DNA from: an uncultured Gammaproteobacteria bacterium
GTDB lineage: Bacteria > Patescibacteriota > Patescibacteriia > UBA1558 > 2-01-FULL-52-15
DNA: 64,000 bases
Assembly (NCBI GenBank): GCA_964402565.1
Contig: CAYOCJ010000001.1
Span: 568,823-632,822, forward strand
Direction of reading: 5' to 3'
Both the position numbers and the translations under genes were made by a program. The notes beneath the pieces are model-generated. The model saw only the letters and a program-made list of their open reading frames with translations. It was not told the DNA's origin and ran no database searches. How positions within the stretch are numbered: position 1 is the first letter of the stretch; every line of letters starts with the position of its first letter. Positions 1-51,810 of the stretch are shown here, one piece after another.

Positions 1-538
1 CTTCGTCTTTTTGCATGCTTTCATTCAGCCACTGCCTGAAAAGGTCAGCCTTATCTTTCTTGATCTGCTTTGATTTCCAGATCAGATATCTATCCAGACG
101 GGGCGACAGACGCAATGTATATTTTATCGTGAACGACTCTTGACCGATATTTTCGTCGAGGTATTGCAAGAATGCCTTTACTTTTTTGGTCAGTGAATCT
201 GGCGAGTAAAAAACGATCTTAATGTACTTTTTTACGTCGGCATTATACGTCAACGCCTCTACAGACGCGTCGAGAATGCTGCCCTTCGCGAGCAGGTATA
301 GCACCTGCTTCTTATGTGCGAGTGCCAGTGCCAGCAAATAACCAGTGTCAGCTTCAAGCGCTGTGCCATCGATAACTAACGCATCAAGTTCATTAAAATG
401 CGTGCCGTCTAAATTACCTTTTTTAAGATCGATGTTCGTCCACACTGAAATACCGAGCCGCTTCAGTTCCTGCACGAGCTCCTGATGCAAGAGCAGCTCT
501 TTCGGTCCCGATATATTGAGAGAAATAAAAAGTTTCAT
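1..538 (-). CDS. Partial CDS (N-terminus in window, runs off the left edge). It is absent from the ORF track because no stop falls in the window. The N-terminal region looks Rossmann-like, faintly nucleoside 2-deoxyribosyltransferase-like; function unknown.
   Basis: Manual translation of the minus strand from ATG (revcomp of cat at 536-538) gives MKLFISLNISGPKELLLHQELVQELKRLGISVWTNIDLKKGNLDGTHFNELDALVIDGTALEADTGYLLALALAHKKQVLYLLAKGS... open to position 1. The ATG forms an ATGA overlap with the TGA stop of the upstream gene 535..1524. Confidence 0.35.
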   Translation of the reverse strand, partial: MKLFISLNISGPKELLLHQELVQELKRLGISVWTNIDLKKGNLDGTHFNELDALVIDGTALEADTGYLLALALAHKKQVLYLLAKGSILDASVEALTYNADVKKYIKIVFYSPDSLTKKVKAFLQYLDENIGQESFTIKYTLRLSPRLDRYLIWKSKQIKKDKADLFRQWLNESMQKDE

Positions 539-1524
539 ATGCCGTTGTTTGAGTGCTCATCTTGAATTAATGCACCGAATTCGGCGTCAGTTGCGGCCGC
601 AGCATCAGCCCACAACACTTTTGCAACTGCAGCTGCCCAGCTCATATGGACAACGCTATAGGTGTCATCATGCTGCAAAACATAATGCTGATTAAAAAGG
701 ACGATCCGTTTAAAATTTTTTCTTAAATTTTCAAGATCTTGCTGGGCAATTTTTTCGTTCGCCTGTATATGCAAAAGCAAGGTTGTATATTCCTTATTAT
801 TTTTATGTTGTAATGCACTATGCGTGATGCCAAGAGGACTCGGGCCAATGATACATACTTTTTCAGAAAGTCGTGGTGTGAACGTCGTTTCCTCTTCTGC
901 GTTTCCCACTTTGTTCAAGCTGATACCGAAATCAACCTTGCCTAAATATGTTTCATCAAAAGATCGAAACAGGTTCATTGATCTGAAATCAGATATAACT
1001 GCTTTTGCAGGGTCGATCAATTTATTGCCGAACATGATAGCAGCACTCTTGAAACTGGGATTGCTTGCAACTTGGATAGCGTTGATCAAATTTGAACGTA
1101 ATCCCAATCCGCCAGATTTGATAATTGATGAAAGATCCTGTTCAGCAAGTGCTTCAGGCGAATAACGCGAACCGGTGAATATTACAGGCTTATTGAATCC
1201 TTTCAGTGTGAATTTCGCCGCGGCTGCCGCGAGAACCATACTCTCAGCACGCACCAAAACAACGAAACCATCAAACTCCACTTTTTTGGCTGCAAGAATT
1301 CTAAGAATATTATTCAAACTTTGCAGAGAAAAAGCCTCCTTCTCTCCTTGAAGAAAAATAGGAGTAATGTCTGTCAAAAGGGCTACTTCAGGTAGCTCTG
1401 AGAACCATGTTGGAATATCAGACTCTTGATCAACGAAAAAAATGCTCTTGTTTGCTTTGATACTCACAAGAGAACCCGAAGAAAACAGCAATGCTATTTT
1501 ATATTTTTTATCAATTTTACTCAT
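535..1524 (-). CDS. L-asparaginase family protein (type I asparaginase / GatD-like amidohydrolase)
   Basis: 329 aa. Motif layout GFVVLVRAESMVLAAAAAKF...KPVIFTGSRYSP parallels the asparaginase GVVITHGTDT...PVVLTGAMRP pattern. Assignment by family-level motif recall only. Confidence 0.55.
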   Translation of the reverse strand: MSKIDKKYKIALLFSSGSLVSIKANKSIFFVDQESDIPTWFSELPEVALLTDITPIFLQGEKEAFSLQSLNNILRILAAKKVEFDGFVVLVRAESMVLAAAAAKFTLKGFNKPVIFTGSRYSPEALAEQDLSSIIKSGGLGLRSNLINAIQVASNPSFKSAAIMFGNKLIDPAKAVISDFRSMNLFRSFDETYLGKVDFGISLNKVGNAEEETTFTPRLSEKVCIIGPSPLGITHSALQHKNNKEYTTLLLHIQANEKIAQQDLENLRKNFKRIVLFNQHYVLQHDDTYSVVHMSWAAAVAKVLWADAAAATDAEFGALIQDEHSNNGI

Positions 1525-1530
1525 GTGAGT

Positions 1531-2208
1531 TTAGTTCGAACCTACAAACAAGTATTTTATTATTATAAAAACCATCGCTAGCGTAAATAATGGGCCTAGC
1601 CAAATATAATCATAAGTAAATAAAGGTAGAATAAGATTGCAAATTGATCCAAAAAAAGCTGAAATCAAAGTAGAAAATATCACAACCTTTAGTAAATTTC
1701 GGTGTGAAGATGTAGAAACTTTATATTTTTGCCATAAAGTCAGAAATCCTTTAGCAATGTAACCTAAAAAACATAAAGAAAAGGCCGCATACGGCAAAAA
1801 ATTAATTTTTGTTTGATACGAAAAATTATCAAAATTTGAATAAATGTGTTCAACCTTAAAATAAAATATTAATACCGACACAAAGAATAATCCGAGAACG
1901 TATCTAACTTTTTCGCCAAAACTTATTGGTTTAACGCTATAAGGAAAGTAATGAGAAAATATGGAAAAAGAAACAGCTATCGAGGCTGCGGAAAAATAAA
2001 TAATGGAGCTAATTGCAATTGCACTCTCAAGGCTTGATGCAGTAAAAAAAATTCCCGTTGCTAAGCTCCAAACAGCGATAAAAAAAAGCATAACTGAAAA
2101 CGATCGATTTAGGCTACTCTTAGTGTTTTTAAGAAAAATAAATATCGATAGAGCTATATTCGCTCCTGCAGTTAAAAAGAGCAGAATTAATTTGTAATCT
2201 ATAATCAT
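1531..2208 (-). CDS. Polytopic membrane protein resembling the N-terminal 7TM sensor module (HisKA_7TM-like) of the adjacent histidine kinase; a standalone paralog or fragment
   Basis: 225 aa, about 7 hydrophobic segments. N-terminus LKNTKSSLNRSFSVMLFFIAVWSL matches LFQNTKSTINRYFAVMALCNSLWSF of ORF 2324..4525. Confidence 0.5.
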   Translation of the reverse strand: MIIDYKLILLFLTAGANIALSIFIFLKNTKSSLNRSFSVMLFFIAVWSLATGIFFTASSLESAIAISSIIYFSAASIAVSFSIFSHYFPYSVKPISFGEKVRYVLGLFFVSVLIFYFKVEHIYSNFDNFSYQTKINFLPYAAFSLCFLGYIAKGFLTLWQKYKVSTSSHRNLLKVVIFSTLISAFFGSICNLILPLFTYDYIWLGPLFTLAMVFIIIKYLFVGSN

Positions 2209-2323
2209 ATAAGCCGTCTTAATATTAATAGCCGTCCATTAAAGATTAGCACTTTCAGGATTTTAGTCAAGTGCCAAGGAATATTAAAATAATTGCTAAT
2301 ATTAGCAAAAATTTTTTTAATTT

Positions 2324-4525
2324 CTATTTTGTCGACAAAACAGGATCAGGCGTAATAATTGGTATTACAAATTGAAATGAGCTTCCTTTTTCAAGCCCAT
2401 CACTCTCAACCCAAATACGACCTCCGTGCTCAGTGACCACTCTCTGCGCAATATAGAGCCCAAGACCCGATCCTTGAGTATTAACTTGTGCAATGCCTGT
2501 GCCTCTAACAAATTTTCTAAACAACGATTTTGCATCATTAGGTCTTATACCAATGCCGGTGTCTTTGCAAATAAAATGTAATTCATTCTTTTCCTCTAAA
2601 GTCACAATTTCTATGCGTCCCTTTGGGGTATACTTTATTGCATTATCTATGAGATTTAAAATTACTTCACGAACTTTATCACTATCAACAAAAAGCTTGC
2701 GCATGTTTTTTGCAGGTGAAAAACTAACTTTAAGACCTTTCGAAATAAATTGACCTTGCAACTCCTTCAAAACACTTTCAACTAATAAATTAACATCAAC
2801 GGTTGTCTTATCGAGCTTAAATCTTCCTGATTCAATTCTTGAAACGTTAAGAAAAACATTTATAAGTCGAGCCAGGCGGGACGCGCTCTCAAAAAGATCT
2901 GAAATAATTTTTCTTTGCTTCTCTGGCACAGAGCCAAAATCGCCTTCAAGCAACATTGATAAATAACCCTTAAGAGCAGATATTGGGGTTCTAAGCTGAT
3001 GTGACGCAATTGATAAAAATTCAGACTTGGCCGTATCAAGTTGTTTTAAGTGCGCATTCGCGTCTTGTAATTGTAAATTTGTTTCCTTGAGTTTTTTAGT
3101 TGCAACATTAATTTTGTCTTGCAGTTTTAAATTAAATTCGCCAATCGATTCATAAAGCTGTGACTTTTCTATCGCAACAGCTACTTGGGGAGTCAAACTG
3201 CTGAAAAAACGAACCTCATCATCTCCATAAATATCGCCCGATTGCTTTTGACCTAGAATTATTACTGCCTTTAATTGTCCTTCGAGATAAACCGGCGCAC
3301 AAAACTCTATACCCTGTCTTTCAAGCTCATCAAGAACCTGTTTTGAACGCGTTAGTTCATCGGGATCCTCCATGTCAGCAACTCTCCTATACATTTCATC
3401 TGTAATAATAACGTCTTGTTTTTCTTTCAAAAACTCGATTAAATCACTTTTTGGATTAAATTCTTTACCTCCTAACCCACTCGTCAATGATAAAAATTTT
3501 GCGTTTTTCTGAACTAAAATATCAACGGTTTTTATTTTGAGATCATATGCCAAAGCAGAACGCAGGCTCGTTAATAAAACATCTAAATCAATTTCCTTCG
3601 CGATAATTATGCTAATTTCACGTAAAACCCCTTGATAGTCGATTTTTTCTTTGAAAAAAATATCATCAGTTAATTTTGCGAGAAAACGCTTAAGCGGGTC
3701 TAGCGCAATTACTACCGCAAATGATACGACCATAAATATCAACAACTTACCATACCGTCCTGTTTGTTCTTGAAGTGTTTCCGCAATGAAAAATGATGTG
3801 AAGGCAAAAATACTTGTGACAAAAGCCACAATGAGAAAATATAAAAAACTTTTTGCTAAAAGCGTTCTTATATTCATCAGCCTGTGACGAACTATGGAGT
3901 AGGTTATGAGAGAGAGATAAATAAACGAACCGACGACATCAAACTGACTAAAATTATCAATTCCAAGTAGCGGTAAAATAAAACTTGGGATTGTAGCCAT
4001 AAAAGTAAAAATTAAAGCGCCAAAAGCTACGTAAACAATTTGCTGCCGCCTTAGTCCTTCTGCTTTAAAGCTTTCTGTAAAAAGTTTAAAGTCTACAAAT
4101 AATAATGAAAAAACAATAAATGCTGTGTAGACATAAAATAAAGGTCCAAATTGGCCTTCAAAACTTCCAAAATTAACAGTATCAACCCTTTGTATAATTA
4201 ACTTTCCATACAAACTAGTAAAAAATAGCAGAGCCGTAAAAAAAACAATTGTGCTAGTTCTAATGAAATTTTTTTCTTTTCCGATCAGATGAAATAGCCA
4301 CTCTAACCCACTACCTAATATCAGAGCTCCAAAAGCATATTGAGCGTGTACCCAGATTGGATTATGACTATAGACAGTAATAAAATTACTAAAAGACCAT
4401 AGTGAATTACACAAAGCCATCACAGCAAAATATCTGTTAATGGTGCTTTTTGTGTTTTGAAACAATACGATCCCTCCTAAGCCCAAGCTTAGGAGTGAAA
4501 TAATTGCGACAAGTGTACTTAACAT
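2324..4525 (-). CDS. Sensor histidine kinase (7TM sensor region, GAF-like region, coiled coil, HisKA, HATPase_c)
   Basis: 733 aa. H-box ASHQLRTPISALKGYLSML; N/G boxes IDNAIKYTPKGRIEI, KDTGIGI, GSGLGLYIAQRVVTEHGGRIWVES; multi-TM N-terminus. Confidence 0.85.
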   Translation of the reverse strand: MLSTLVAIISLLSLGLGGIVLFQNTKSTINRYFAVMALCNSLWSFSNFITVYSHNPIWVHAQYAFGALILGSGLEWLFHLIGKEKNFIRTSTIVFFTALLFFTSLYGKLIIQRVDTVNFGSFEGQFGPLFYVYTAFIVFSLLFVDFKLFTESFKAEGLRRQQIVYVAFGALIFTFMATIPSFILPLLGIDNFSQFDVVGSFIYLSLITYSIVRHRLMNIRTLLAKSFLYFLIVAFVTSIFAFTSFFIAETLQEQTGRYGKLLIFMVVSFAVVIALDPLKRFLAKLTDDIFFKEKIDYQGVLREISIIIAKEIDLDVLLTSLRSALAYDLKIKTVDILVQKNAKFLSLTSGLGGKEFNPKSDLIEFLKEKQDVIITDEMYRRVADMEDPDELTRSKQVLDELERQGIEFCAPVYLEGQLKAVIILGQKQSGDIYGDDEVRFFSSLTPQVAVAIEKSQLYESIGEFNLKLQDKINVATKKLKETNLQLQDANAHLKQLDTAKSEFLSIASHQLRTPISALKGYLSMLLEGDFGSVPEKQRKIISDLFESASRLARLINVFLNVSRIESGRFKLDKTTVDVNLLVESVLKELQGQFISKGLKVSFSPAKNMRKLFVDSDKVREVILNLIDNAIKYTPKGRIEIVTLEEKNELHFICKDTGIGIRPNDAKSLFRKFVRGTGIAQVNTQGSGLGLYIAQRVVTEHGGRIWVESDGLEKGSSFQFVIPIITPDPVLSTK

Positions 4526-4529
4526 CGGG

Positions 4530-5723
4530 CTAAATGACCTTTAATTTTTTCCCCACATTGAAAATTTTTTCAAAAGCTTCATCAATTTGTTCGTATGAAT
4601 GCAAAGCACTCAGCGCAAATCGAATACGTGCCATTCCTTTAGGTACAGCTGGCCATCTTACTGTGGGAGCAAAAACACCTGTTAAATAGAGTTCCTCCGC
4701 AAACTTCATCGCCAAATTTTCATCACCGATGTGAACCGGCACAATTTGAGTCACGCTCGAATAGGTGTTGAAACCGACTTCGTTTAGTTTCATCCTAAAA
4801 TACTGTGCTTTTTTCATCAAATCTTTGATCACACTATTATTGGATTGAACAAATTGAATTGCTGCTCGCACAGCTCCTACAACACCTGGGGAAAGCGAGT
4901 CCGAAAACATATAGGATCTGCAAGCCACTCTCATATAATCAATTAATGCTTTATCTCCACTTAAAAAACCCCCTGAGACCCCAAGCCCTTTACTGAAAGT
5001 GGCCATATTAAGATGAACCTTGCCTTTGCGTCCAAAGTGCTCAGCCGTTCCCGCGCCAGTATCGCCCAATACACCAATCGCATGAGCGTCATCGACCATA
5101 ACAGCGGCATCGAATGCGTCCGCTAAATCTAATATTTTATCCAAATGAGCAATATCTCCATCCATTGAAAAAACTCCATCTGTCACAATGAGTTTTCTGA
5201 AACGCTTATACCGAGAAATCTTTCTTTCTAAATCGTCAATGTTATTATGAGAATAAATCACAATTTCTGCATTACTTAGTTTACATCCGTCAACAATGCT
5301 CGCATGGTTATATTCATCACTAAAAATGACAGCTTTTTTTGCAAGAAAAGACTTTCCAAACCCAAGCAAGTTGATGTAGCCTGGTATTATGCCAGCATTT
5401 GCTCCATAGCCAGATGCAATTGTTAATGAATCTTCTGAGCCAACAAATTTTGACAGTTCCTTTTCTAATTCATTATGTATCAACATGGTTCCTGTTAGAA
5501 GACGCACGCCGCCTGTTCCTGCGCCAAACTCACGAATTGATTCTATGGCTGCTTTTTTTACTTGTTCATTATTTGCTAGACCAAGATAATTATATGAGCC
5601 CATCATTAGTATTCTTTTTTTATCTACGCTAACATATGGGCCAGTGGCTGTTTCCAAAACAATACCTTGTGGCAAACCTAATTTATTTTTTATGTAGTCG
5701 AACACTTTTTGAATTTCGTCCAT
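4530..5723 (-). CDS. PLP-dependent alpha-oxoamine synthase family enzyme (serine palmitoyltransferase / Kbl / BioF-like)
   Basis: 397 aa. Glycine-rich PLP region SGYGANAGIIP, DDAHAIGVLGDTG, and a lysine motif ATFSKGLGVSGGF that is closer to the SPT-type TFSKS than the Kbl-type TLGKA. Confidence 0.8.
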   Translation of the reverse strand: MDEIQKVFDYIKNKLGLPQGIVLETATGPYVSVDKKRILMMGSYNYLGLANNEQVKKAAIESIREFGAGTGGVRLLTGTMLIHNELEKELSKFVGSEDSLTIASGYGANAGIIPGYINLLGFGKSFLAKKAVIFSDEYNHASIVDGCKLSNAEIVIYSHNNIDDLERKISRYKRFRKLIVTDGVFSMDGDIAHLDKILDLADAFDAAVMVDDAHAIGVLGDTGAGTAEHFGRKGKVHLNMATFSKGLGVSGGFLSGDKALIDYMRVACRSYMFSDSLSPGVVGAVRAAIQFVQSNNSVIKDLMKKAQYFRMKLNEVGFNTYSSVTQIVPVHIGDENLAMKFAEELYLTGVFAPTVRWPAVPKGMARIRFALSALHSYEQIDEAFEKIFNVGKKLKVI

Positions 5724-5729
5724 ACTCGT

Positions 5730-7421
5730 CTATTGACTTTTTTCAATTATATTCCTCCTCTTCAACTTCTGACTCAACGTCAGCATATCATTTTCCATAG
5801 TCCACTTCTCTGCTACCAGCTTAAATTCTCGTACTTGCTCAAATGATTGAAAATGCTCCAACATTTTTTTTATCTCTTCCGCATACACTACGTGCACGCG
5901 CTGGTTCGACAAGACCTGCGGCATCTCGTACGTAATCTGCTCCTTCTCGCACAGCATGCGTAAATTATCTAACTCAGGAACGATCAGCGCCGCTATTGCC
6001 CGCTCCGTATCTCCGTAGACCATGGCCTGAAGGATCAAAGGGCTCTCTTCTAACGCTTGCTCAATGGGCACCGGAAAAACATTACGGCCTGTCGACAATA
6101 CGATCATTTCTTTAATACGGCCGATGATTAAAAGAAAGCCATCAGCATCTATCGAACCGAGATCGCCAGTATGAAACCACCCGTCACTATCGATCACCTC
6201 TGCAGTTAACTCAGGTGCATCATGGTAGCCTTTCATGACCGAATCTCCTTTGGCTAGTATCTCTCCGTTCGGCGCTATCCGTATTTCTGCAGATGCGAGC
6301 GGCAGCCCAACGGTACCGAACTTATGCATTTCGATCTGATTTGCGGCAAGAACAGGCGATGTTTCCGTTAAACCATAGCCTTCAAGTATGAGCACCCCAA
6401 GCGATTCAAAAAATTCCGCAATGTGTTTTGGCAGCGCTCCTCCGCCTGAAACAGCGAAACGAAGCATGCCGCCGAATGCCCCGCGCACGTTGTGAAAGAT
6501 CAGCTTCTCACCTATATAATACATCAGTGCATCGACAAACGAAAGGCGTCCCTCAAGCCTCCGTACTGCCGCGCGATGTGCCCTGATGAATAGCAGGTGT
6601 ACTATGGCGTTCGACGACAATTTTTTTATTATTTTTTCATGAACTCGTTCAAAAATTCGTGGTACGCTTACCACAATGGTCGGCTTTGCAAACTGCATGT
6701 CCTCAGCAAGCGTTTCGATGCTTCGAGCATAGGTGATCTGAGCACCCGAAAGCAGCGGTACATAATACCCTGCGGTTCGTTCGAGAATGTGTGATAACGG
6801 TAAGAACGAAAAAAAAGTATCGGACGGGAAAACAGCAATATGCTGGACTAAGGCTCGTACATTGCTCAAAATATTTACGTGCGTCAGTTCAACTCCTTTC
6901 GGCTTTCCCGTTGTGCCTGAAGTGTACACTATGGTATGTACATCGTTTGATTGCGGCTCGTAAGCTACGCTGCTGTCCGGATGTGCTGCGGTCGCATCCT
7001 GAACGATTGACTCCGATTCATATATTTTTAATGTTTTGTATGTGTTCAGCTGGCTTTGCATTGATTTTTTTAAGGCCGCATCGACGCACAAAAAAGAGCT
7101 GCCGGAGTGCTGCAAAATATGCTCTACATAATCATAGGTATATGTTGAATGGATCGGAACAGAGATGCCGCCGCATCGCGCTATGGCGAGATCTGCAATG
7201 ACCCATGCGGGGCTATTCTTCATAAACAATGCCACGCGGTCGCCAGGATGAAGACCATCCTGCAACAATCGATGTGCAAATGCGTCCACCTGCTGCAGCA
7301 AGCGTCTGTATGATATGCCGTTTTTTTCTGAATCCCCGATCGTGCTCACGGCAATACGATCACTGTGCTGTTCAGCTGATTCTCGAAAGGAGTGATACAC
7401 GGAATAACGGCCAGTAGGCAT
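5730..7421 (-). CDS. AMP-dependent acyl-CoA (or acyl-ACP) synthetase/ligase, long-chain fatty-acid type
   Basis: 563 aa. AMP-binding motif YTSGTTGKPKGVELTH, GYGLTETS, WFHTGDLG, and a C-terminal lysine region. Confidence 0.85.
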   Translation of the reverse strand: MPTGRYSVYHSFRESAEQHSDRIAVSTIGDSEKNGISYRRLLQQVDAFAHRLLQDGLHPGDRVALFMKNSPAWVIADLAIARCGGISVPIHSTYTYDYVEHILQHSGSSFLCVDAALKKSMQSQLNTYKTLKIYESESIVQDATAAHPDSSVAYEPQSNDVHTIVYTSGTTGKPKGVELTHVNILSNVRALVQHIAVFPSDTFFSFLPLSHILERTAGYYVPLLSGAQITYARSIETLAEDMQFAKPTIVVSVPRIFERVHEKIIKKLSSNAIVHLLFIRAHRAAVRRLEGRLSFVDALMYYIGEKLIFHNVRGAFGGMLRFAVSGGGALPKHIAEFFESLGVLILEGYGLTETSPVLAANQIEMHKFGTVGLPLASAEIRIAPNGEILAKGDSVMKGYHDAPELTAEVIDSDGWFHTGDLGSIDADGFLLIIGRIKEMIVLSTGRNVFPVPIEQALEESPLILQAMVYGDTERAIAALIVPELDNLRMLCEKEQITYEMPQVLSNQRVHVVYAEEIKKMLEHFQSFEQVREFKLVAEKWTMENDMLTLSQKLKRRNIIEKSQ

Positions 7422-7423
7422 AT

Positions 7424-8266
7424 TTACATTTCAATAAAGTGAGTAACCTTCTGAAAAATCTTATTCTTATTCTCCGAGCGCAGCGGATTATGGTTCAATT
7501 CCTTTAAAATGAACATTTCCTTGTATACGCTGCCAACATTATCAAAAATATACTCCGCGCTCCTCGGATGAGATATCCGGTCATCGCGCGAGTGAATGAT
7601 AAGTATCGGAACAGTCACCTCGCGCAGGTGTTTTCTCGTGACCTGTTTGACTGAATCGCGGAAGTGCCCCAAACCATTCGTAGGAAACGAAGCATAATTG
7701 CCCGTTGATTCATATGCTTCGACGCGGTATTTCGATACATAAGGCTTCCGCACCTTTGAAATGCCGAAAAGCCTGAAGACATGGTATAGAATAAAATAGT
7801 AGGTCCGCCATTTCCAAAAAATCGACGGTCCGAGGCACACAATGCCTTTGAATCGATCCGGATACCGGCGTGCCAGATCAAGTGCTATATTTGCTCCGAA
7901 CGAGTAGCCGATCAAAACTATCCTCTTTCCGGAAGCTGCTGCCTCATTCGCTACAGCCTCGACGCTTTCCATCCAGTCCTGATAATTGCTTTGGATCAGG
8001 TCGTCAATATCAGTGCCATGTCCGGCAAGGCGGGCCACCATCACATCAATACCCTGTGAATACAAAAAATCGGCAAGCTCCTTCATATCATACGGGCTGC
8101 CGGTAAACCCATGGATCAAGATTGCTACCGTATCATTGTCGCGATGCAGGTAATTATACGGCTTGGCCTTGTCTTTGACGGGATGCGCATCAGCATTGCT
8201 TCGAGACCTGAGGTTAGCCTTTTTTTGACCAAATAGCATGGCTCTAGTATACCAAGATTCGCCCAA
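7424..8266 (-). CDS. Alpha/beta-fold hydrolase (carboxylesterase / lipase-like)
   Basis: 280 aa. ILIHGFTGSP oxyanion region, nucleophile elbow GYSFG (GXSXG), and a C-terminal His region IIHSRDDRISHP. Confidence 0.7.
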   Translation of the reverse strand: MGESWYTRAMLFGQKKANLRSRSNADAHPVKDKAKPYNYLHRDNDTVAILIHGFTGSPYDMKELADFLYSQGIDVMVARLAGHGTDIDDLIQSNYQDWMESVEAVANEAAASGKRIVLIGYSFGANIALDLARRYPDRFKGIVCLGPSIFWKWRTYYFILYHVFRLFGISKVRKPYVSKYRVEAYESTGNYASFPTNGLGHFRDSVKQVTRKHLREVTVPILIIHSRDDRISHPRSAEYIFDNVGSVYKEMFILKELNHNPLRSENKNKIFQKVTHFIEM

Positions 8267-8317
8267 AATGAAAAATATGCGATCCGAGCTTCATACGAAC
8301 TATGGACGAATGTCGAC

Positions 8318-9814
8318 CTACTTAATGTGAAAAATTTTGAGCTTGGTCAGCGCCTTTTCTGCAAGATGCAAACGATCCTTGCTTTCCGCATAGAGCGTAA
8401 ACAATCGCTCTCCTTTTTTAACATGCGTGCCATATTCTTTATTTAAATACAGTCCCGCTAATTTGACCGAGGGTGCGCCAAGAATGCGGCAGACATAATT
8501 AATGCCTTTATTATCAGTAAAGATTATTTTGCCGCTCTTGGGGGCTGTATAGTACTTCTTGTGAGCGCCAAGCGTGATGTCTTCTGAATCAATATCAGGA
8601 TCTCCGCCTTGTTCCTTGATGATCTGCTGCATTTTTTTCCATGCTCTGCCGCTGTCCAGGACTTTCCAGGCAATAGTTGCACCCTGGCCTTTCTTGCAGT
8701 AGTTGATCATTTCAAGCAATTGACCTGCCAAGTGAACGGCTTTTGCGGCGAGGTCGCCAGGGCGATCTTTTTTCTGCTGCAGGACCCGCAACACATCTCG
8801 TGCTTCAAGGGCCGGACCAACGCCGAAGCCTACCGGATCAGAGGTTTTGATGATGCTCACAATGACCTTGATGCCGAAACGTTTGCCGATCGTGATGAAT
8901 TTCTCCTCCAGCATTCGCGCGGTCTTCATATCCGGAATCTTCGTCGTCGGTCCAACCGGCATATCAATAATCAGGTGGTTGACACCGGTAGCAACTTTCT
9001 TGGCCATGATCGAGACGATCATTTTGCTGTACGGCTCAAGCGACAATGGATAGCTTACTTTCAGTATCTTGTCATCCGCCGGCGCTAAACTCAATCCGCC
9101 ACCCCACACCAGGCATCCGTTGGTCTTCTTCACGATTCGTTTTATGTCCTGCACAGAGTGGCTCACGGGAGCAAGGACTTCCATAGTGTCGGCAGTTCCT
9201 GCTGGCGACGTTATCGCTCGAGATGATGTTTTCGGGATCTTGATGCCCAACGATGCAATGATAGGTATGACGACCATGGTCGTGCGATTGCCCGCAAGGC
9301 CTCCCACTGAATGCTTATCAACGACAAGACCCGGGAATTTCAAAGTGTCGCCGGTCTCAGCCATAGCCTTGGTCAGATAGTACAGCTCATCGTCCGTATA
9401 ATCATGCATGAAACCCGCAGCAACAAAATAGGTGATCTGCACTTTATTCAGCTGATCGGTGACTATGTCTGAAATAATGGAGTAGATCTCTTTATAGTTA
9501 AGCCTTTTGCCCAGCAAACGTTTCTTGATAGCCTGGACCGAACGCGCTGTCTCCTGAAAATTTACCTCGGCAATGGCATTATCTTTGATCTTGGTATTAT
9601 TCTCCCAAATGTCCTTGTAGATGCCGATGTGACCCGGCCGTACGCGCTCCTTGCTCGTATTGGCCGAAGCGATAAAGGTCGCACCATTGATAACTACTTT
9701 CAGCGTATCTCCTGCGTGAATGCCATAATGCCACGCTTCTTTCTCATTCAACATAACGATCTTCATCGATCCGGTCTCGACATCAAGCTTTTTAACCTTT
9801 AAAAAATATGACAT
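8318..9814 (-). CDS. Thymidine/AMP phosphorylase family (archaeal-type DeoA-like AMP phosphorylase with N-terminal extension)
   Basis: 498 aa. HSVGGLAGNRTTMVVIPIIASLGIKIPKTSSRAITSPAGTADTMEVL matches the pyrimidine-nucleoside phosphorylase core. The N-terminal ~90 aa extension is typical of AMP phosphorylases. Confidence 0.75.
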   Translation of the reverse strand: MSYFLKVKKLDVETGSMKIVMLNEKEAWHYGIHAGDTLKVVINGATFIASANTSKERVRPGHIGIYKDIWENNTKIKDNAIAEVNFQETARSVQAIKKRLLGKRLNYKEIYSIISDIVTDQLNKVQITYFVAAGFMHDYTDDELYYLTKAMAETGDTLKFPGLVVDKHSVGGLAGNRTTMVVIPIIASLGIKIPKTSSRAITSPAGTADTMEVLAPVSHSVQDIKRIVKKTNGCLVWGGGLSLAPADDKILKVSYPLSLEPYSKMIVSIMAKKVATGVNHLIIDMPVGPTTKIPDMKTARMLEEKFITIGKRFGIKVIVSIIKTSDPVGFGVGPALEARDVLRVLQQKKDRPGDLAAKAVHLAGQLLEMINYCKKGQGATIAWKVLDSGRAWKKMQQIIKEQGGDPDIDSEDITLGAHKKYYTAPKSGKIIFTDNKGINYVCRILGAPSVKLAGLYLNKEYGTHVKKGERLFTLYAESKDRLHLAEKALTKLKIFHIK

Positions 9815-20562: not shown

Positions 20563-21771
20563 TTATTGATGGATCCCTCCGATGATATTGCCGATCGGCA
20601 GGATGATGGACAGAGCCATAAAGGCAACCAAAAAACCAATGACCAGCAGGAGCACCGGCTCCAGAATGGTCGAGAGATTCTTCGAAAAAGAGTCAAGCTC
20701 ATCTTCATAGAACTCTGCCAGGTATTCGAAGGTTTCTGATAGATTTCCCGAAAGCTCTCCGACATTGATCATTTTCGTAACTAATGAGGGGAAAAAATGA
20801 GGGTACCGATGCAAGGTAACCGAGAGTGCTGTTCCCTTACGAACTTCCACCAGCATGGCTGCCACGCGATCCTGATACAGCGAATTGCTTAATGCGCGGG
20901 TCATGATGTCGAGCGACTCGTCGATGGTCAGTCCTCCCTGAAGCATCAATGCCATGGAACGGTTGAAGTTTGCCAGATTCGAGGTTTTACTGAATTGATG
21001 GCTAATCGGCAGATGATATACCAGCCAATGAATGTAGCGTTTGGTTTTCGGCAGTTTATTCGCGACGATCACAGCCACGATAGACCCGACAGCCGCAACG
21101 GTCACCAGGTACCAATACTTTTGCGAGAATGTCGCCACGACGATGAAAATTTTGGTCACCAATGGCAGAGCGACATTCAATGATTTGAACAATTGCAAAA
21201 ATTTCGGCAGGATGAAAATCGACAGCGTGATACCAAGGCCGCCTAATGCGATGATCACGATCGCCGGGTACATCATGGCCGACTGGATCTTGGAATGCAG
21301 GTCATGGTCCTTCTTCAGCTTGACGCTGAGGTTGATCAAATTCCTTTCCAAAGAACCGCTCTGCTCACCGATCTTCACCATGTTCACGAAAAATTCATTG
21401 AATGTGTACGGGAATAGGCGCAAGCCGTCAGAAAGCTCACTCCCTTTTCTCACGAGTTCAAGCAAACGCCGCAGGATCGATTTCATTCGTCCGCGCGACT
21501 GCTCATATAACGCTTCAATGCTCTCATCCAATACCATGCCTGACTTGATCATCAGGGATAAATGCTTGACGAAGAGCATCTTTTCTTTCAGCGGAACGAT
21601 GCCGAAGCCAGACAATGGCCGCTTGTGATATTTCTTGGAAACTGATTCCAGCGACTGCACGTCATAGCCCTGCTGCATCAATGAAAAATGCGCCTGCTTC
21701 AAATTTTCAGCATCGATATCCCCTTGGAAGATCTGCTTATTTTTATCGAGTACTCGATAATGGAATTGCAT
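20563..21771 (-). CDS. pilC: Type IV pilus / T2SS inner-membrane platform protein PilC/GspF
   Basis: 402 aa. Two T2SSF-type repeats with three TM helices. 1-nt gap to pilB downstream. Confidence 0.9.
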   Translation of the reverse strand: MQFHYRVLDKNKQIFQGDIDAENLKQAHFSLMQQGYDVQSLESVSKKYHKRPLSGFGIVPLKEKMLFVKHLSLMIKSGMVLDESIEALYEQSRGRMKSILRRLLELVRKGSELSDGLRLFPYTFNEFFVNMVKIGEQSGSLERNLINLSVKLKKDHDLHSKIQSAMMYPAIVIIALGGLGITLSIFILPKFLQLFKSLNVALPLVTKIFIVVATFSQKYWYLVTVAAVGSIVAVIVANKLPKTKRYIHWLVYHLPISHQFSKTSNLANFNRSMALMLQGGLTIDESLDIMTRALSNSLYQDRVAAMLVEVRKGTALSVTLHRYPHFFPSLVTKMINVGELSGNLSETFEYLAEFYEDELDSFSKNLSTILEPVLLLVIGFLVAFMALSIILPIGNIIGGIHQ

Positions 21772-21772
21772 A

Positions 21773-23446
21773 CTATCCTCGTACTACTCTTATTATTTCT
21801 TCAATGCTGGTCTTCCCGACCAGCACTTTCTCGAGTCCATCCTCTACCATGGTAATCATACCATGTTCGCGTGCAACCTGGCGGATCTGGTCAGCATTCG
21901 CTTTCGACACGATCAGTTCGCGAATCGCATCATCCATCGGCAATACCTCGAAAATACCGATACGACCCTGATACCCGGTTTGGCTGCAGAATGAGCACCC
22001 TTTGCCCTTATACGTACGAGCCTGGCCTTCATACACGTACTTAGAAATATCGACATCGGCACCAAAGAGCTTCGCTAATTCAGTCTCAGAAACGCTTTCA
22101 CTTGCAATGCATTTCGAGCAAATTTTGCGGACGAGGCGCTGGGCGATGATAATGTCGATGGTCGACGCGATCAGGAACGGCTCGACATGCATATCATAGA
22201 GTCGCGGCAACGTGGTCGCCGCATCGTTCGTATGCAAGGTCGAAAGCACCAAATGACCGGTCATAGCAGCATTGATCGCAATGGCAGCTGTTTCCTCATC
22301 GCGAATTTCACCGACCATGATGATGTCAGGATCTTGGCGGAGCAAGGAGCGAAGACCTGCAGCGAAGGTGAGGTTTGTTTTCGGATTGACCTGGATCTGA
22401 TTCATGCCATCCAGGTAGTATTCGACCGGATCCTCAATAGTAGAAATATTGACTTCTCTGCTATTCACGATGAGCAGCAACGCATACAAAGTCGTCGTTT
22501 TACCGCTGCCGGTAGGCCCGGTGGACAGTATCATGCCATGAGGCTTTGCAATGGCATCACGCACCAGCTGCAAACCATGCTGCGAAAGGCCTAATTCCTC
22601 GAGCGAGGTCAGGCGGGAGTCGGGCGCCAATAAACGCATGACCACTTTCTCGCCTTGCGTTGTCGGCAAAATCGAAACACGAATATCGATGTCTGCTTTA
22701 TCAATGGACATCATCATTTTGCCGTCCTGTGCTGAACGGTGTTCATCGGTTCTGAGCTTGCTCAAAATCTTGATACGCGTGATGATCAGGTCGTGAATAG
22801 CCATAGGCAAAGTGAGCACATCGTGGAGAATGCCGTCAATTCTGAAACGGATCAGCACATCTTCTTTGTGCGGTTCGATATGAATATCTGAAGCTTTATT
22901 TTGGAAGCCATATGCCACGAGCGTATCTACGATCTTGATAACCGACACATCCTCTGCCCGGGCGCCCCGCGCCTTGAGCGCATTGACCTTAATGATCTCC
23001 TCAAATTGCAATTTGATGCTTTTTCGGTACTGAACCAGAGCCTGCTCGATCAAAAGCTCAGGGCAATAGTACGGTATAACGTGTTCACCGGTCTTCTTTT
23101 CCATCATTTTGATGAACTCGTAATCCTCGGGGTCAGACATTGCCAGTTTCAAGCCTTCGGCATCACGGCGGAATGCAAGTACGAAGCGTTTGCGGGCGAC
23201 CACTTCGGGTATTTCAGTAAGCGTTTCCGGAACAATAGCTTCTTTTCGCAGGTCGATAAATTTGACCTTATAATAATTGGCAAGTAATTGGCCGATCTGG
23301 TCTGCTTTAACGACATTCCGTTCTATCAAAACATCGGTCAAACGTTTCTGTTCACGGTCAACGATACTTAATGCCTCAGAAAGCACTTCAGGGCTTGCGA
23401 GGTTCACTTTTTGTATGATCTGTACTATGGCTTCTTTAGATAGCAT
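21773..23446 (-). CDS. pilB: Type IV pilus assembly ATPase PilB/GspE family
   Basis: 557 aa. Walker A LSTGPTGSGKTTTLYALL, Asp/His boxes GEIRDEETAAIAINAAMTGHLVLSTLHTND, tetracysteine CSKC...CSFC, and an N-terminal T2SSE_N-like domain. Confidence 0.92.
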   Translation of the reverse strand: MLSKEAIVQIIQKVNLASPEVLSEALSIVDREQKRLTDVLIERNVVKADQIGQLLANYYKVKFIDLRKEAIVPETLTEIPEVVARKRFVLAFRRDAEGLKLAMSDPEDYEFIKMMEKKTGEHVIPYYCPELLIEQALVQYRKSIKLQFEEIIKVNALKARGARAEDVSVIKIVDTLVAYGFQNKASDIHIEPHKEDVLIRFRIDGILHDVLTLPMAIHDLIITRIKILSKLRTDEHRSAQDGKMMMSIDKADIDIRVSILPTTQGEKVVMRLLAPDSRLTSLEELGLSQHGLQLVRDAIAKPHGMILSTGPTGSGKTTTLYALLLIVNSREVNISTIEDPVEYYLDGMNQIQVNPKTNLTFAAGLRSLLRQDPDIIMVGEIRDEETAAIAINAAMTGHLVLSTLHTNDAATTLPRLYDMHVEPFLIASTIDIIIAQRLVRKICSKCIASESVSETELAKLFGADVDISKYVYEGQARTYKGKGCSFCSQTGYQGRIGIFEVLPMDDAIRELIVSKANADQIRQVAREHGMITMVEDGLEKVLVGKTSIEEIIRVVRG

Positions 23447-23458
23447 GGCATTGTTTCA

Positions 23459-24058
23459 TTAAAATTGCTGCGCTCCGCATTGAGGACAAAATTTAACGCC
23501 TTTATCAAGCTTGGTCCCGCACTCCGGACAAAAATTATGCGCTGAACTTTGCTTTGGCCGAGAAGGTGCTGCTGCAGCAGGCTGTTCAACTGGCTGTACA
23601 ACAGGCGCCTTTTCTACTGAAGGTGACTGAGTAGCCGCAGCAACAGGTGTTTTCACAACAGCTGGAGCTTTCGGCTTAACCTTGCTCATGTGCAGGTGAT
23701 AGTCGATGCGTTCAGCGATGATATCAAGCGTCGTATTATCTTTGACCAGGTACTCCACAGCACCAAGATCAAGCGCTCGCTTCTGGTCATCGCTCTGAGC
23801 TAAATTTGAAAGAATGATGACCGGTATAGAGCTGAGCTCATCTGATCGCTGAAGATCAGTAAGTACTTCGAAGCCGCTCTTCTTCGGCATGATAAGGTCC
23901 AGGATCACACAGTCCGGCTTCAAAGTCATGATCTTCTGAAGACCGTCTTCGCCGTCGACGGCCAATTCAACGTCAAAGCCCTTATCATGCAGCTCCGCTT
24001 GGTAGACTTTGCGGAGGAAGCTGTCATCATCAATGAAAAGAACGGTGCCTTTACTCAT
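23459..24058 (-). CDS. CheY-like response regulator receiver domain with a C-terminal zinc-ribbon
   Basis: 199 aa. LFIDDDSFLRKVY...KPDCVILDLIMPKKSGFEVL receiver motifs, and C-terminal CPECGTKLDKGVKFCPQCG. ATGA overlap with the upstream CheA-like gene. Confidence 0.8.
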   Translation of the reverse strand: MSKGTVLFIDDDSFLRKVYQAELHDKGFDVELAVDGEDGLQKIMTLKPDCVILDLIMPKKSGFEVLTDLQRSDELSSIPVIILSNLAQSDDQKRALDLGAVEYLVKDNTTLDIIAERIDYHLHMSKVKPKAPAVVKTPVAAATQSPSVEKAPVVQPVEQPAAAAPSRPKQSSAHNFCPECGTKLDKGVKFCPQCGAQQF

Positions 24059-25626
24059 ACGATATGTTCAAAAAGTACTCGATGATTCACGATCGTTACC
24101 GGTATACCCTCCTCAGATACTGCTGCGCTCGAAACAAGCTTGCTTTTTTGAACCACCGGCAGACTCTGTGCCAATAACTCCTGCTCCTGAACTCCTGACG
24201 GTAAAAAGAGAGCACATCGGCGTCCTTCATGAACCACAATAGCTACTGCAACCGCATGCAATGCTGAGGCGTCTGCCCCATCGACGAATGCGCCGATAGT
24301 GCGCACCGGGACCTTTGCATTTCGATAGCGATACTCCGTCGGAACTGCGCCATCGGAAGGTAATTGTATAATTTTTTCTACCGTAAATAAAGGCAATGCA
24401 AGATAGTAGGCGCCCCATTGCCAGGTCAATGCACGGAACAGCGTGGGAGCCAATGGAACAATCAATTCAAAGGTTGTGCCCTTATTCTTTCCCCGGTTCG
24501 CGCTTCGCATTTCCATCGTGCCATGCAAGCCTTCCAGCACGCTTCGTACAAAAGGAAGGCCGACCCCGCGACCTGAAACCAACGATGCCTGTTCCCGGGA
24601 GCTGACACCTGCGCCTATTAAGAACTGCATGCGAAGCTCAGGCTTCATTTTCATCAGTTTCTGCTTCGTAGTCCGGTTATTTCGCAAAACAGATCGTTCC
24701 AGAGCGTCCCAATCAATGCCATGTCCCGTATCGCTCACCATGACATGCATGGCGCCTGCCCGCAGGTCGAATGACAGCCGAATAACTCCGGTGTCTCCTT
24801 CGCGGAATCCATGGTCAACGGCATTTTTGATAAGCTGTACGCAGGCCTCCCGCAGTGCTTCCAGGACCTGCGATTCAAAACGCATGTCATGGTCTTTGAA
24901 TTCGAAGGTGATGAATTTCTTTTGCTGCCTTGAGAGATCACGCACGAGCCGTGATAAGAATGCGAAATATTGGCGTACCGGAATAAGTTTCATGTCGATG
25001 ATCGCTTTTCTCAGATCACTGGCATGCGTGGCGAGATTATAAAGGCCGACCTTGAGCGCACCGATATCGTTCGAATGTAGAACGCGCTGCAATTGCTGCT
25101 GGGAAATCACAATATCATTGACCAATGCATACGCATTTTCCAATTCTGCAGAACTAATGTCTACATACGAACTTAACGGTGCGTATATTGAGCTGGTGGT
25201 ATCGCTCGTTGTTTGCGCCTGAGGCGCCGCCTGATCTGCCGCGCGAGTTTTTTTCCCTGATGGCCGCAAAGTGAATGCAATAGCAGGCCCGAGGTCTATT
25301 TCACTATCTGACTCGCGGATGCTATCAAGGTTGCGCCGGAACGCATCAATCGCCATAAAGCATGCGTCAAGACTGTCGCTCCCCAGCGACCGATTCCCCT
25401 GACGAACTCCGATGAACAAATCCTCTACTTGGTGCAATGCATTTGCCAGCGCCTGGTAATTCATGGTCGCCGCATCACCTTTGAGCGCATGCAATTGCTG
25501 CAGAATCGCATCGATCCCTTTCTTGTCATGAGGATTTTTTTCAAGAAGTATCAGCACATCCTCAAGATGCTTCAATTTGAGCGCTGCCTCGGACAAAAAG
25601 AGCTGCTTGTACTGGCTTACGTGCAT
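24055..25626 (-). CDS. cheA: CheA-like chemosensory histidine kinase (Hpt, dimerisation, HATPase_c, CheW-like domains)
   Basis: 523 aa. Hpt QQLHALKGDAATMNYQALANALHQVED; kinase LIKNAVDHGFREGDTG, VSDTGHGID, SGRGVGLPFVRSVLEGLHGTMEM, GKNKGTTFELIVPLAP; C-terminal CheW-like region. Confidence 0.8.
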   Translation of the reverse strand: MHVSQYKQLFLSEAALKLKHLEDVLILLEKNPHDKKGIDAILQQLHALKGDAATMNYQALANALHQVEDLFIGVRQGNRSLGSDSLDACFMAIDAFRRNLDSIRESDSEIDLGPAIAFTLRPSGKKTRAADQAAPQAQTTSDTTSSIYAPLSSYVDISSAELENAYALVNDIVISQQQLQRVLHSNDIGALKVGLYNLATHASDLRKAIIDMKLIPVRQYFAFLSRLVRDLSRQQKKFITFEFKDHDMRFESQVLEALREACVQLIKNAVDHGFREGDTGVIRLSFDLRAGAMHVMVSDTGHGIDWDALERSVLRNNRTTKQKLMKMKPELRMQFLIGAGVSSREQASLVSGRGVGLPFVRSVLEGLHGTMEMRSANRGKNKGTTFELIVPLAPTLFRALTWQWGAYYLALPLFTVEKIIQLPSDGAVPTEYRYRNAKVPVRTIGAFVDGADASALHAVAVAIVVHEGRRCALFLPSGVQEQELLAQSLPVVQKSKLVSSAAVSEEGIPVTIVNHRVLFEHIV

Positions 25627-26051
25627 ATATAGGTAGTGATAAGTTTCGGAATGTCGATGATGGTGATCTTCCTTTTTTGATGGTCGGTATATCTGAGCGT
25701 ACAGGCGAGCAATGGTTTTTTAAAATCAGCCATGCGCGGATTTGCTATCAGCTGCCCGACTTTTTCAACTCGAATCGCATAGTACGCGCCTTCATGCCTG
25801 ACGATCACTGCCTGATTCGCATTTCGCGAAACTCCCAGATTCATGATAGGCGCACAGTCGACCACGGTCATCAATTGGCCGAGCATATAGCCCAAGCCAA
25901 GTACTGACCGAGATCGATTGCCGGGGATCGTCGTGATCTGCGCAAGCGCAGTGACGCCATCGACTTGATCGACCGGCAATGCATACCAGCGGTCTTGTAT
26001 CGTAAATGGAAGTAAGGTGGTGATTTTTTTTATGGTTGCCATTTTGATCAT
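25617..26051 (-). CDS. CheW-like coupling protein
   Basis: 144 aa. Single CheW-like domain (RWYALPVDQVDGVTALAQITTIPGNRSRSVLGLGYMLGQLMTVVDCAPIM...AVIVRHEGAYYAIRVEKVGQL). Overlaps the CheA start and the MCP stop. Confidence 0.6.
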   Translation of the reverse strand: MIKMATIKKITTLLPFTIQDRWYALPVDQVDGVTALAQITTIPGNRSRSVLGLGYMLGQLMTVVDCAPIMNLGVSRNANQAVIVRHEGAYYAIRVEKVGQLIANPRMADFKKPLLACTLRYTDHQKRKITIIDIPKLITTYICT

Positions 26052-33662: not shown

Positions 33663-34307
33663 TTAGAGCTGTACAGGATATGCTTCGACTACAATACGAT
33701 TTTTACTCGTAAATTTGGGCGTGCAGCTGAATAAGGTCAGCTTTGGAGTCTTGGTATTTGCAAGGATGTCTACCTTGCTTGGTTTCACGATCGAGACTTT
33801 AGCTACAGCGTAATGATACTCCTTGCCCTCCCATGTCAGAGAGATAGGATCGCCGACCTTCATTTTGTCGATGTCCCAGAATGTTTTTGTACTTGGAGGA
33901 CGCCACATGTATCGATGTGCAGAGATCACCGTATTGCCGCCCTTTGCAGGCGTAGATGTGCCAGGCACATGCCATAAACCCTTGTTCAGAGTTTTTTCGC
34001 TTTTTCCTTCTAGCACGGCACTGTTCACGCCCATGCGGGAAACTACCAGAGTGTTCGTCACTTGTTTAACCGGCGGCTTTGTCGGAACAATTACTTTCTT
34101 CACCGTAGCAGCCTGAACAACCGGCACAGGGAATGAAAGATTCTGTGAAGTCACCGTTGCTGTTACCGCTTGCTCATCTTCGTTCGCATATGTCTGCAAA
34201 GCTGCATGAGCGCCGAGTACACCTACGCCAAACCCTGCTGCTAAGGCGAGTAGCGAGATGACCGCTACGAAGCGGACTGAGAATTTATTGCGATTGTCGA
34301 TAGGCAT
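33663..34307 (-). CDS. Sortase (transpeptidase, sortase family)
   Basis: 214 aa. N-terminal TM anchor. Catalytic His region GGNTVISAHRYM (cf. sortase NTVLAGHR), Cys motif LTLFSCTP (cf. LTLITCTP), downstream Arg NRIVVEA. Confidence 0.75.
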   Translation of the reverse strand: MPIDNRNKFSVRFVAVISLLALAAGFGVGVLGAHAALQTYANEDEQAVTATVTSQNLSFPVPVVQAATVKKVIVPTKPPVKQVTNTLVVSRMGVNSAVLEGKSEKTLNKGLWHVPGTSTPAKGGNTVISAHRYMWRPPSTKTFWDIDKMKVGDPISLTWEGKEYHYAVAKVSIVKPSKVDILANTKTPKLTLFSCTPKFTSKNRIVVEAYPVQL

Positions 34308-51770: not shown

Positions 51771-51810
51771 TCGTCAACCGTTCTTTTCATTGCAGTGAAC
51801 AATCACCTAC

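Follow-up and report, generated by a model that had tools for sequence, protein, structure and literature searches.

A Patescibacteria gene cassette links a distinct alpha-oxoamine synthase to a 7TM sensor histidine kinase and may make and sense a fatty-acid-derived aminoketone

A gene cassette was analyzed in a 64,000-nucleotide stretch of Patescibacteria DNA (contig CAYOCJ010000001.1, positions 568,823 to 632,822; this whole stretch is called the window, and all coordinates refer to it). The cassette lies on the minus strand within window 1..8274. Its core is a PLP-dependent alpha-oxoamine synthase (AOS) followed by a sensor histidine kinase with a seven-transmembrane (7TM) sensor domain. 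In all 27 informative loci of this AOS clade, the HisKA_7TM kinase was located 3′ of AOS on the same strand. We give roughly even credence to the reading that the cassette makes and senses a long-chain alpha-aminoketone derived from a fatty acid, by analogy with the CqsA/CqsS systems. A preliminary description of this DNA had treated 4530..8266 as a three-enzyme module for a sphingoid base, and its stop at 4530 left out the kinase, which begins 4 nt downstream. Sequence comparison identifies 4530..8266 as the 5′ half of a conserved Patescibacteria cassette, in the order esterase, fatty-acid ligase, AOS, 7TM-GAF kinase, 7TM-only paralogue, asparaginase-like protein and 186-aa protein. The features are as follows.

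7424..8239, minus strand: alpha/beta hydrolase, a monoacylglycerol-lipase / Est30-type esterase; 271 aa from ATG 8239
5730..7421, minus strand: AMP-forming long-chain fatty-acid ligase (acyl-CoA or acyl-ACP synthetase, ACS); 563 aa
4530..5723, minus strand: PLP-dependent AOS of the 'RWPAV' clade; 397 aa; PF00155, E 2e-51
2324..4525, minus strand: sensor histidine kinase with the Pfam domains HisKA_7TM-GAF-HisKA-HATPase_c; 733 aa
1531..2208, minus strand: stand-alone 7TM membrane protein; 225 aa; PF16927, E 2e-7
535..1524, minus strand: degenerate type-I-asparaginase-fold protein; 329 aa; PF00710, E 7e-15
1..538, minus strand: conserved 186-aa protein 'c8', with its 3′ end beyond the window; the translation matches the complete copy at L087 5271-5831
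8246..8274, minus strand: weak promoter-like site, TTTTCA-17-TATACT with TG, within the 51-nt gap that precedes the hydrolase gene; the cassette transcript may begin here

The linkage of AOS and kinase was compared across genomes. The informative loci comprised 23 from GTDB genomes and contig look-ups, one from a metagenome scan, one from Parcubacteria (AOS at 42% identity) and two from Omnitrophota. Their AOS identities ranged from 37 to 100%; several Patescibacteria classes were represented, and the flanks were unrelated (labels of the form L### denote related loci). The kinase gene directly followed AOS in 21 loci, and 1-2 genes stood between them in the other six. ACS was directly upstream of AOS in 12 loci, the esterase was present in 8, and the kinase was never missing. 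Because the kinase linkage held in 27/27 loci and the ACS linkage in 12/27, signal making and sensing was favored over bulk lipid synthesis. As a negative control, 79 metagenome and about 60 GTDB loci of Kbl, BioF or serine palmitoyltransferase (SPT) type were inspected, and an adjacent 7TM kinase was found in none. The metagenome scan used back-translated family patterns (FSMDGD, DDAHxG), which are generic to the superfamily, and 79 of its 80 loci proved to be of the common Kbl, BioF or SPT kinds.

Relatives at 77%, 66% and 63% identity kept the order hydrolase, ligase, AOS and 7TM kinase between differing flanks. That the three enzyme genes stand together, as first described, was borne out: the hydrolase-ACS-AOS arrangement was found in 8 related loci and ACS-AOS in 12, and its recurrence with different flanking genes indicates that it is not due to chance. 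L171 holds the gene set of the window in another order (three 7TM-only genes, asparaginase-like, 186-aa-type, esterase, ligase, AOS, 247-aa protein, kinase), indicating that the cassette genes are a functional set rather than a chance run. The accessory genes around the AOS-kinase core vary. They include ACS with esterase, a PlsC-like acyltransferase, Amidohydro_2 and an SRPBCC lipid-binding protein; another set pairs a weakly acetoacetate-decarboxylase (ADC)-like protein and an ICMT/PEMT methyltransferase. In Omnitrophota, the genes after the kinase encode a REC protein and one of HD-GYP type.

Three loci carried a 247-257-aa protein between AOS and kinase (L170:8227-9668, L052:2670-4096, L171:8233-8976), accompanied in two of them by an ICMT/PEMT-type methyltransferase. 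Two of the three proteins matched the ADC family weakly (E 1e-4 to 4e-3). These matches suggest that the 247-257-aa proteins and the methyltransferase may further tailor the AOS product. The assignment of the window to Patescibacteria agrees with its homologues, which are named Patescibacteria or Parcubacteria, and with neighbors such as AMP phosphorylase and type IV pilus genes. Many Patescibacteria-like contigs from metagenome-assembled genomes (L007-L012, L015, L019 and others) bear the placeholder title 'uncultured Gammaproteobacteria bacterium isolate binchicken...', and such titles are not reliable taxonomy.

Codon composition suggested that AOS and kinase are inherited together. The G+C content at third codon positions (GC3) was 0.57 for the AMP phosphorylase gene upstream of the cassette, 0.53 for the esterase and 0.49 for the ligase; it was 0.32 for AOS, 0.28 for the kinase and 0.24 for the 7TM protein. 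The drop falls at the ACS/AOS junction (window ~5725). The 77%-identical relative has the same step (L001 ~10000), and low-GC relatives are uniform. Because AOS, kinase and 7TM protein have a common foreign codon composition, they seem to be mobile as a unit. The block looks like a lateral replacement beside resident esterase and ligase genes, and its composition suggests a donor among low-GC Patescibacteria.

The three enzyme ORFs of the preliminary description were present on the minus strand where it had placed them, and Pfam confirmed an AOS, an acyl-CoA/ACP synthetase and an alpha/beta hydrolase. No membrane helices were predicted in any of the three. The hydrolase (Pfam Hydrolase_4 / Abhydrolase, E 1e-24) has a GYSFG nucleophile elbow, and its nearest PDB relatives are the thermostable monoacylglycerol lipases 7e04 and 3rm3 and the carboxylesterase Est30 (1tqh). 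Its ORF reaches TTG 8266 (7424..8266, 280 aa); the start is most likely ATG 8239, because the resulting 271 aa equals the length of the orthologues, which hold the same position in L001, L004 and L171. ACS matched PF00501 (E 2e-80) and AMP-binding_C_3 (PF23562), and its adenylation motifs YTSGTTGKPKG, GYGLTE and TGDLG are intact. Its top NCBIfam matches were FadD11 and long-chain-fatty-acid-CoA ligases, every one under its cut-off. The fatty-acid-activating partner adjoining AOS does imply a long acyl substrate for the synthase. The sphingoid-base reading as a whole is only partly supported.

The gaps are 2 nt between hydrolase and ACS, 6 nt between ACS and AOS, and 4 nt from the AOS stop to the kinase start. 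Overall, the seven cassette genes are 2-6 nt apart, except that one gap measures 115 nt and c8 overlaps its neighbor by 4 nt at its start. The three enzyme genes, first described as translationally coupled, are tightly packed here but do not overlap; in relatives the hydrolase, ACS and AOS genes overlap by 1-29 nt. A promoter and terminator scan found sites no more frequently than in shuffled sequence, and operon boundaries were therefore drawn from gene spacing alone.

The family of the synthase was of particular interest. Its sequence and an AlphaFold2 (AF2) model place it in the alpha-oxoamine synthase superfamily (fold-type I PLP). The catalytic residues His140, Asp211, His214, Lys245 and Arg366/368 are invariant in 35 aligned family members, and Lys245, within the motif TFSKGLG, is the Schiff-base lysine. 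This motif had been taken as a sign of an SPT- or BioF-like rather than a Kbl-like enzyme. It is present, but the argument is weak, for it mixes an SPT pattern (F-S-K) and a BioF pattern (GVSG). When scored against curated models, AOS reached 406 bits for TIGR01825 (BioF/Kbl family; cut-off 535), 398 and 331 for two Kbl models (cut-offs 460 and 493) and 386 for BioF (cut-off 426). For SPT the scores were 360 (CFB type; cut-off 640), 314 (beta type; cut-off 500) and 251 (alpha type; cut-off 670). Controls from other loci passed their own models, namely an archaeal Kbl/TIGR01825 protein, two BioF proteins and a Bacteroidota SPT (L084; 668 bits against 640). Five further members of the AOS family from the candidate phyla radiation (CPR) fell below every curated model. 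Against PDB sequences, the best solved relative was Sphingobacterium SPT (288 bits), followed by Thermus ThAOS (272) and Kbl (250-268), with lower scores for BioF (about 190) and ALAS (189).

Members of the clade share signatures of their own. The motif RWPAV was found in 120 of the 120 best database relatives, down to 42% identity, and at this position Kbl has (F/Y)P(V/T)VP, BioF RPPTVP and Bacteroidota SPT SPAVP. Trp357 and an insertion at residues ~113-130 also mark the clade. The insertion, of 10-16 residues after GYxxNxG, was present in 35/35 aligned relatives and missing from the reference enzymes. True BioF proteins from other loci, including BioW-BioF fusions, had neither RWPAV nor a kinase. 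A neighbor-joining tree was built from 150 sequences with 200 bootstraps, CqsA/LqsA sequences not being included. The RWPAV family formed one clade (113/200 bootstraps) outside the bacterial SPT clade (199/200), and a sister grouping of the two was recovered in 68/200 bootstraps (34%). Phylogenetic placement, proposed earlier as a check, left AOS outside Kbl and BioF; it put the enzyme in a clade of its own, and SPT membership was not upheld by either the tree or the three models. Judged from sequence, AOS is a member of a distinct clade, neither Kbl nor BioF nor CqsA nor SPT.

The AF2 model of AOS (pLDDT 94) had TM-scores of 0.91-0.94 to ThAOS, SPT and Kbl, and in a fold search SPT, Kbl, BioF and ThAOS all scored 0.88-0.94. 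Because AOS superposes equally well on these enzymes, the fold does not tell them apart. ThAOS (7poa; TIGR01825) resembles AOS in giving the top model score, in structure (TM-score 0.93-0.94, rmsd 1.7-1.8 Å) and in its catalytic residues. Unlike AOS, however, ThAOS has GFPTVP instead of RWPAVP, has no insertion and has no kinase context, and AOS stays below the TIGR01825 cut-off. In a plasmid search, all that came up were homologues of Kbl, BioF, HemA and unnamed class I/II aminotransferases; a CqsA reference was not among them.

The kinase has an intact H-box (SHQLRTP, His508) and an intact ATPase domain. Hydropathy indicated 7 transmembrane helices plus 2 more in its membrane part. Pfam assigned this part to PF16927 (HisKA_7TM), and in NCBIfam residues 1-294 gave only a weak match to LIC10906. 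An AF2 model of residues 1-300 (pLDDT 87, pTM 0.70) showed seven helices, an external beta-hairpin and two further helices. A Foldseek search of the sensor domain against the PDB returned eukaryotic G-protein-coupled receptors (GPCRs) only (best E 2e-3, TM-score 0.43-0.51), a hint that fits a receptor-like 7-helix bundle. Used alone as a protein query, the 7TM domain gave 2 matches, and the full-length kinase was used instead. More distant HisKA_7TM kinases (28-37% identity; L173, L174 and the P0165 locus) were not beside AOS. Directly before each lay the gene of another kind of small-molecule enzyme, which was a SAM methyltransferase in one case, a PlsC-like acyltransferase accompanied by a methyltransferase in another, and an AdoMet_dc-like protein next to an unknown protein in the third. 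Patescibacteria may have a general 'enzyme then 7TM kinase' layout. A REC gene follows the kinase in some relatives, as in L170, and also in L174, whose distant 7TM kinase is not AOS-linked.

The 7TM-only protein is a paralogue of the kinase sensor domain and clusters with the kinases; such genes were also found in L001, L011, L012, L036 and L171 (three copies). The asparaginase-fold protein accompanies the cassette in L001, L011, L012 and L171. In its alignment to AnsA structures, HGTDT is changed to VRAES and TGGT to SSGS, and because the catalytic motif is replaced it is probably not an asparaginase. Homologues of c8 stand beside the cassette in at least five loci (L001, L008, L011, L012 and L171), and no Pfam family matched the 186-aa protein. 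Its description as a nucleoside-deoxyribosyltransferase-like domain with a C-terminal ribbon-helix-helix was dropped, being without Pfam support.

For their lipids, CPR bacteria rely on a host, being unable to synthesize fatty acids themselves. From the gene content we infer the substrates, the product, its role as the kinase ligand and the biological output as follows. The monoacylglycerol-lipase-type esterase would free a fatty acid from a scavenged acyl-glycerol or lysolipid, and the ligase would turn it into an acyl thioester. AOS would then condense the thioester with an amino acid, decarboxylatively, to give a long-chain alpha-aminoketone chemically akin to 3-ketosphinganine and to amino-CAI-1. 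Such an amphiphilic product would be expected to partition into the membrane, where the 7TM bundle of the co-transcribed kinase could perceive it, and the kinase would then phosphorylate a response regulator encoded elsewhere. A synthase-receptor pair of this kind would serve autocrine, quorum or host-proximity signaling. A wider proposition is possible, though rather doubtful: Patescibacteria and some Omnitrophota would own a widespread class of lipid signals, in which host fatty acids are converted to aminoketones read by GPCR-like 7TM kinases, as one branch of laterally exchanged, pherotype-like 'enzyme then 7TM kinase' cassettes. Were this so, an episymbiont could tune its behavior to the lipid supply that it senses from its host, or to the density of its population.

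Alpha-hydroxyketone (AHK) systems offer the closest parallel. There, an enzyme of the AOS family uses a fatty acyl-CoA to form an amino- or hydroxy-ketone, a lipophilic product that is sensed by the membrane kinase encoded next to it (PMC3376566). Like CqsA/CqsS of Vibrio, LqsA/LqsS of Legionella and JqsA/JqsS, the present cassette has a fold-type-I PLP gene of the AOS family beside a polytopic histidine kinase. It differs from CqsA/CqsS in its sensor, a PF16927 7TM domain with GAF after it, and in its additional genes, which encode a dedicated fatty-acid ligase, an esterase of lipase type, 7TM-only paralogues and the degenerate asparaginase-like protein. The carriers also differ, being host-dependent, ultra-small and unable to make fatty acids.

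Several observations weigh against a signaling role. The synthase lies outside the CqsA clade, scoring 191 bits against a cut-off of 428 for the CqsA-type model NF005526; CqsA structures gave 107 bits, where SPT gave 288, and bootstrap support for the RWPAV clade itself is moderate (57%). The GPCR-like fold match of the sensor domain was below significance. A receiver domain is missing from the kinase, and neither the cassette nor the 10 kb downstream of it was found to encode a response regulator; the sole REC protein of the window (23459..24058) is part of a pilus chemosensory operon of CheA type. To our knowledge, known quorum-sensing loci do not include 7TM paralogues that stand alone. The adjacency of AOS and kinase would fit equally a kinase that responds to the state of the membrane or to fatty acid coming in, and regulates a lipid pathway. 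Moreover, neighbors of structural-lipid type occur in some loci, including a PlsC-type acyltransferase (PF01553, E 6e-20) directly upstream of AOS in L024 and L062, and PEMT/ICMT, MGDG-synthase and LpxL-like genes near the Omnitrophota copy.

Such neighbors would suit an aminolipid or sphingoid module, in which the long-chain base is N-acylated to a ceramide-like bulk membrane lipid and the kinase regulates membrane homeostasis. We consider this explanation unlikely. The SPT modules of Rhodobacteria and Bacteroidota would share the condensing chemistry with AOS, include its closest solved relative and also have a ligase beside the condensing enzyme, and the SPT clade is the nearest neighbor of the RWPAV family in the tree. 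In proteobacteria, SPT genes co-occur with ACS; the Rhodobacteria SPT-AcpR-ACS triad has a dedicated ACP together with ACS beside spt (PMC9386255). A fatty-acid desaturase in the window, which the preliminary description had cited for lipid remodeling, was confirmed (51811..52638, plus strand; PF00487, 47 bits). However, AOS is far under all three SPT models, which the Bacteroidota control is not; it carries the insertion and Trp that mark the RWPAV clade, and bootstrap support for placing it with SPT is low. Searches of the window and 28 related loci gave no ACP homologue (E < 1), and the gaps of 2-6 nt are too short for a small gene. An SDR-type reductase or bCerS-like gene was not recognized in any cassette, and the neighbors had no SDR or GNAT Pfam domain. 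Of the ceramide module suggested earlier, then, the ACS beside AOS stands, while the ACP and a recognizable ceramide-pathway gene were not found in the window or the 28 related loci. The constant partner of AOS is instead the sensor kinase, ACS being missing from 15/27 loci and the kinase from none. Nor was the 'MGDG-synthase-like' glycosyltransferase of the window confirmed (37948..39303, minus strand), as Pfam gave DUF6938 only and no glycosyltransferase family.

The kinase could also belong to an input-sensing operon, detecting exogenous host fatty acids or lipids or membrane perturbation, with enzymes that detoxify or assimilate lipids and an AOS product that is an intermediate. This is quite improbable in our view. 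It would account for the position of the kinase 3′ in an operon whose first genes encode a lipase-type esterase and a fatty-acid ligase; small metabolites are common ligands of GAF domains, and the distant 7TM kinases after diverse enzymes could equally mean a pathway plus its regulator. However, the kinase keeps AOS as its constant partner (27/27) and not the esterase or ligase (8-12/27), and AOS, kinase and 7TM protein seem to have been inherited together, apart from ACS and esterase. The operon also has no response regulator or DNA-binding output for a simple regulatory loop. Very improbable is a housekeeping Kbl of threonine/glycine metabolism or a BioF of biotin synthesis whose neighbors are coincidental in a compact genome. 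The top NCBIfam matches of AOS are TIGR01825, Kbl and BioF, relatives are publicly annotated as '8-amino-7-oxononanoate synthase', and the model superposes on ThAOS and Kbl at a TM-score of 0.93. On the other hand, the scores fall under the curated cut-offs that true Kbl and BioF controls pass, the clade insertion and invariant Trp are found in neither family, and searches of the window and 28 related loci (~480 kb in all) gave no homologue of Tdh, BioA, BioB or BioD. The earlier view that AOS is not an ordinary Kbl or BioF thus held. Some CPR bacteria have a separate AOS homologue beside a Tdh homologue, as Table S4 of PMC7567580 lists. The kinase synteny is conserved across two phyla and therefore is not a coincidence.

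The core synteny of synthase and kinase has already been published as a bioinformatic prediction. Bernard et al. 2020 (mSystems, PMC7567580) reported 362 CPR 'CqsA homologues', 51 of them adjoining 'CqsS-like' sensor kinases, and proposed that such pairs may be AHK quorum-sensing systems complete with synthase and sensor. Their own HMM of the CqsS N-terminus is reported to match at E 1e-9 to 1e-18, and the same 'CqsS-like' kinases are listed beside 'LuxI homologues' as well. These are loci of the same kind as ours; however, all AOS homologues, including Tdh-adjoining ones, were pooled there as 'CqsA'. Text searches of PMC7567580 returned no mention of acyl-CoA and no sign of the RWPAV clade, its near-universal linkage or the wider cassette.

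New here are a separate AOS clade, marked by sequence signatures and nearer SPT, Kbl and BioF than CqsA; a kinase linkage that is essentially universal for the RWPAV clade and extends to Omnitrophota; the frequent fatty-acid ligase and lipase-type esterase partners, with the wider cassette described; and compositional evidence that AOS and kinase move together. RWPAV proteins are routinely labeled BioF or Kbl and elsewhere pooled with CqsA, and they belong to neither group. CPR bacteria, or Patescibacteria, make up a large share of bacterial diversity and live attached to hosts. A conserved, laterally mobile pair of a lipid-condensing enzyme and a 7TM kinase offers a concrete experimental way into how they sense hosts or one another. 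If the product proves to be a structural sphingoid lipid instead, this would be the first lipid-synthesis step shown in CPR.

Other genes of the window were also noted. An AMP phosphorylase gene (8318..9814, minus strand) adjoins the cassette upstream, and its product passes the TIGR03327 equivalog cut-off (549 against 535); the enzyme is typical of archaeal-type nucleotide salvage in CPR. A chemosensory-type operon on the minus strand (20563..27937) encodes an MCP (26048..27937), CheW (25617..26051), a CheA-like protein with Hpt and HATPase domains (24055..25626), the REC protein with a zinc ribbon (23459..24058), PilB (21773..23446) and PilC (20563..21771). It looks like a Chp-like control of type IV pili in a CPR bacterium. 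The desaturase gene is overlapped by an antisense ORF of 221 aa (51787..52452) that has no family matches. A defense-type gene for an OLD-family AAA-TOPRIM nuclease was found at 30843..32183 (minus strand), a secreted CAP-domain protein at 32252..33598 and a sortase at 33663..34307 (minus strand).

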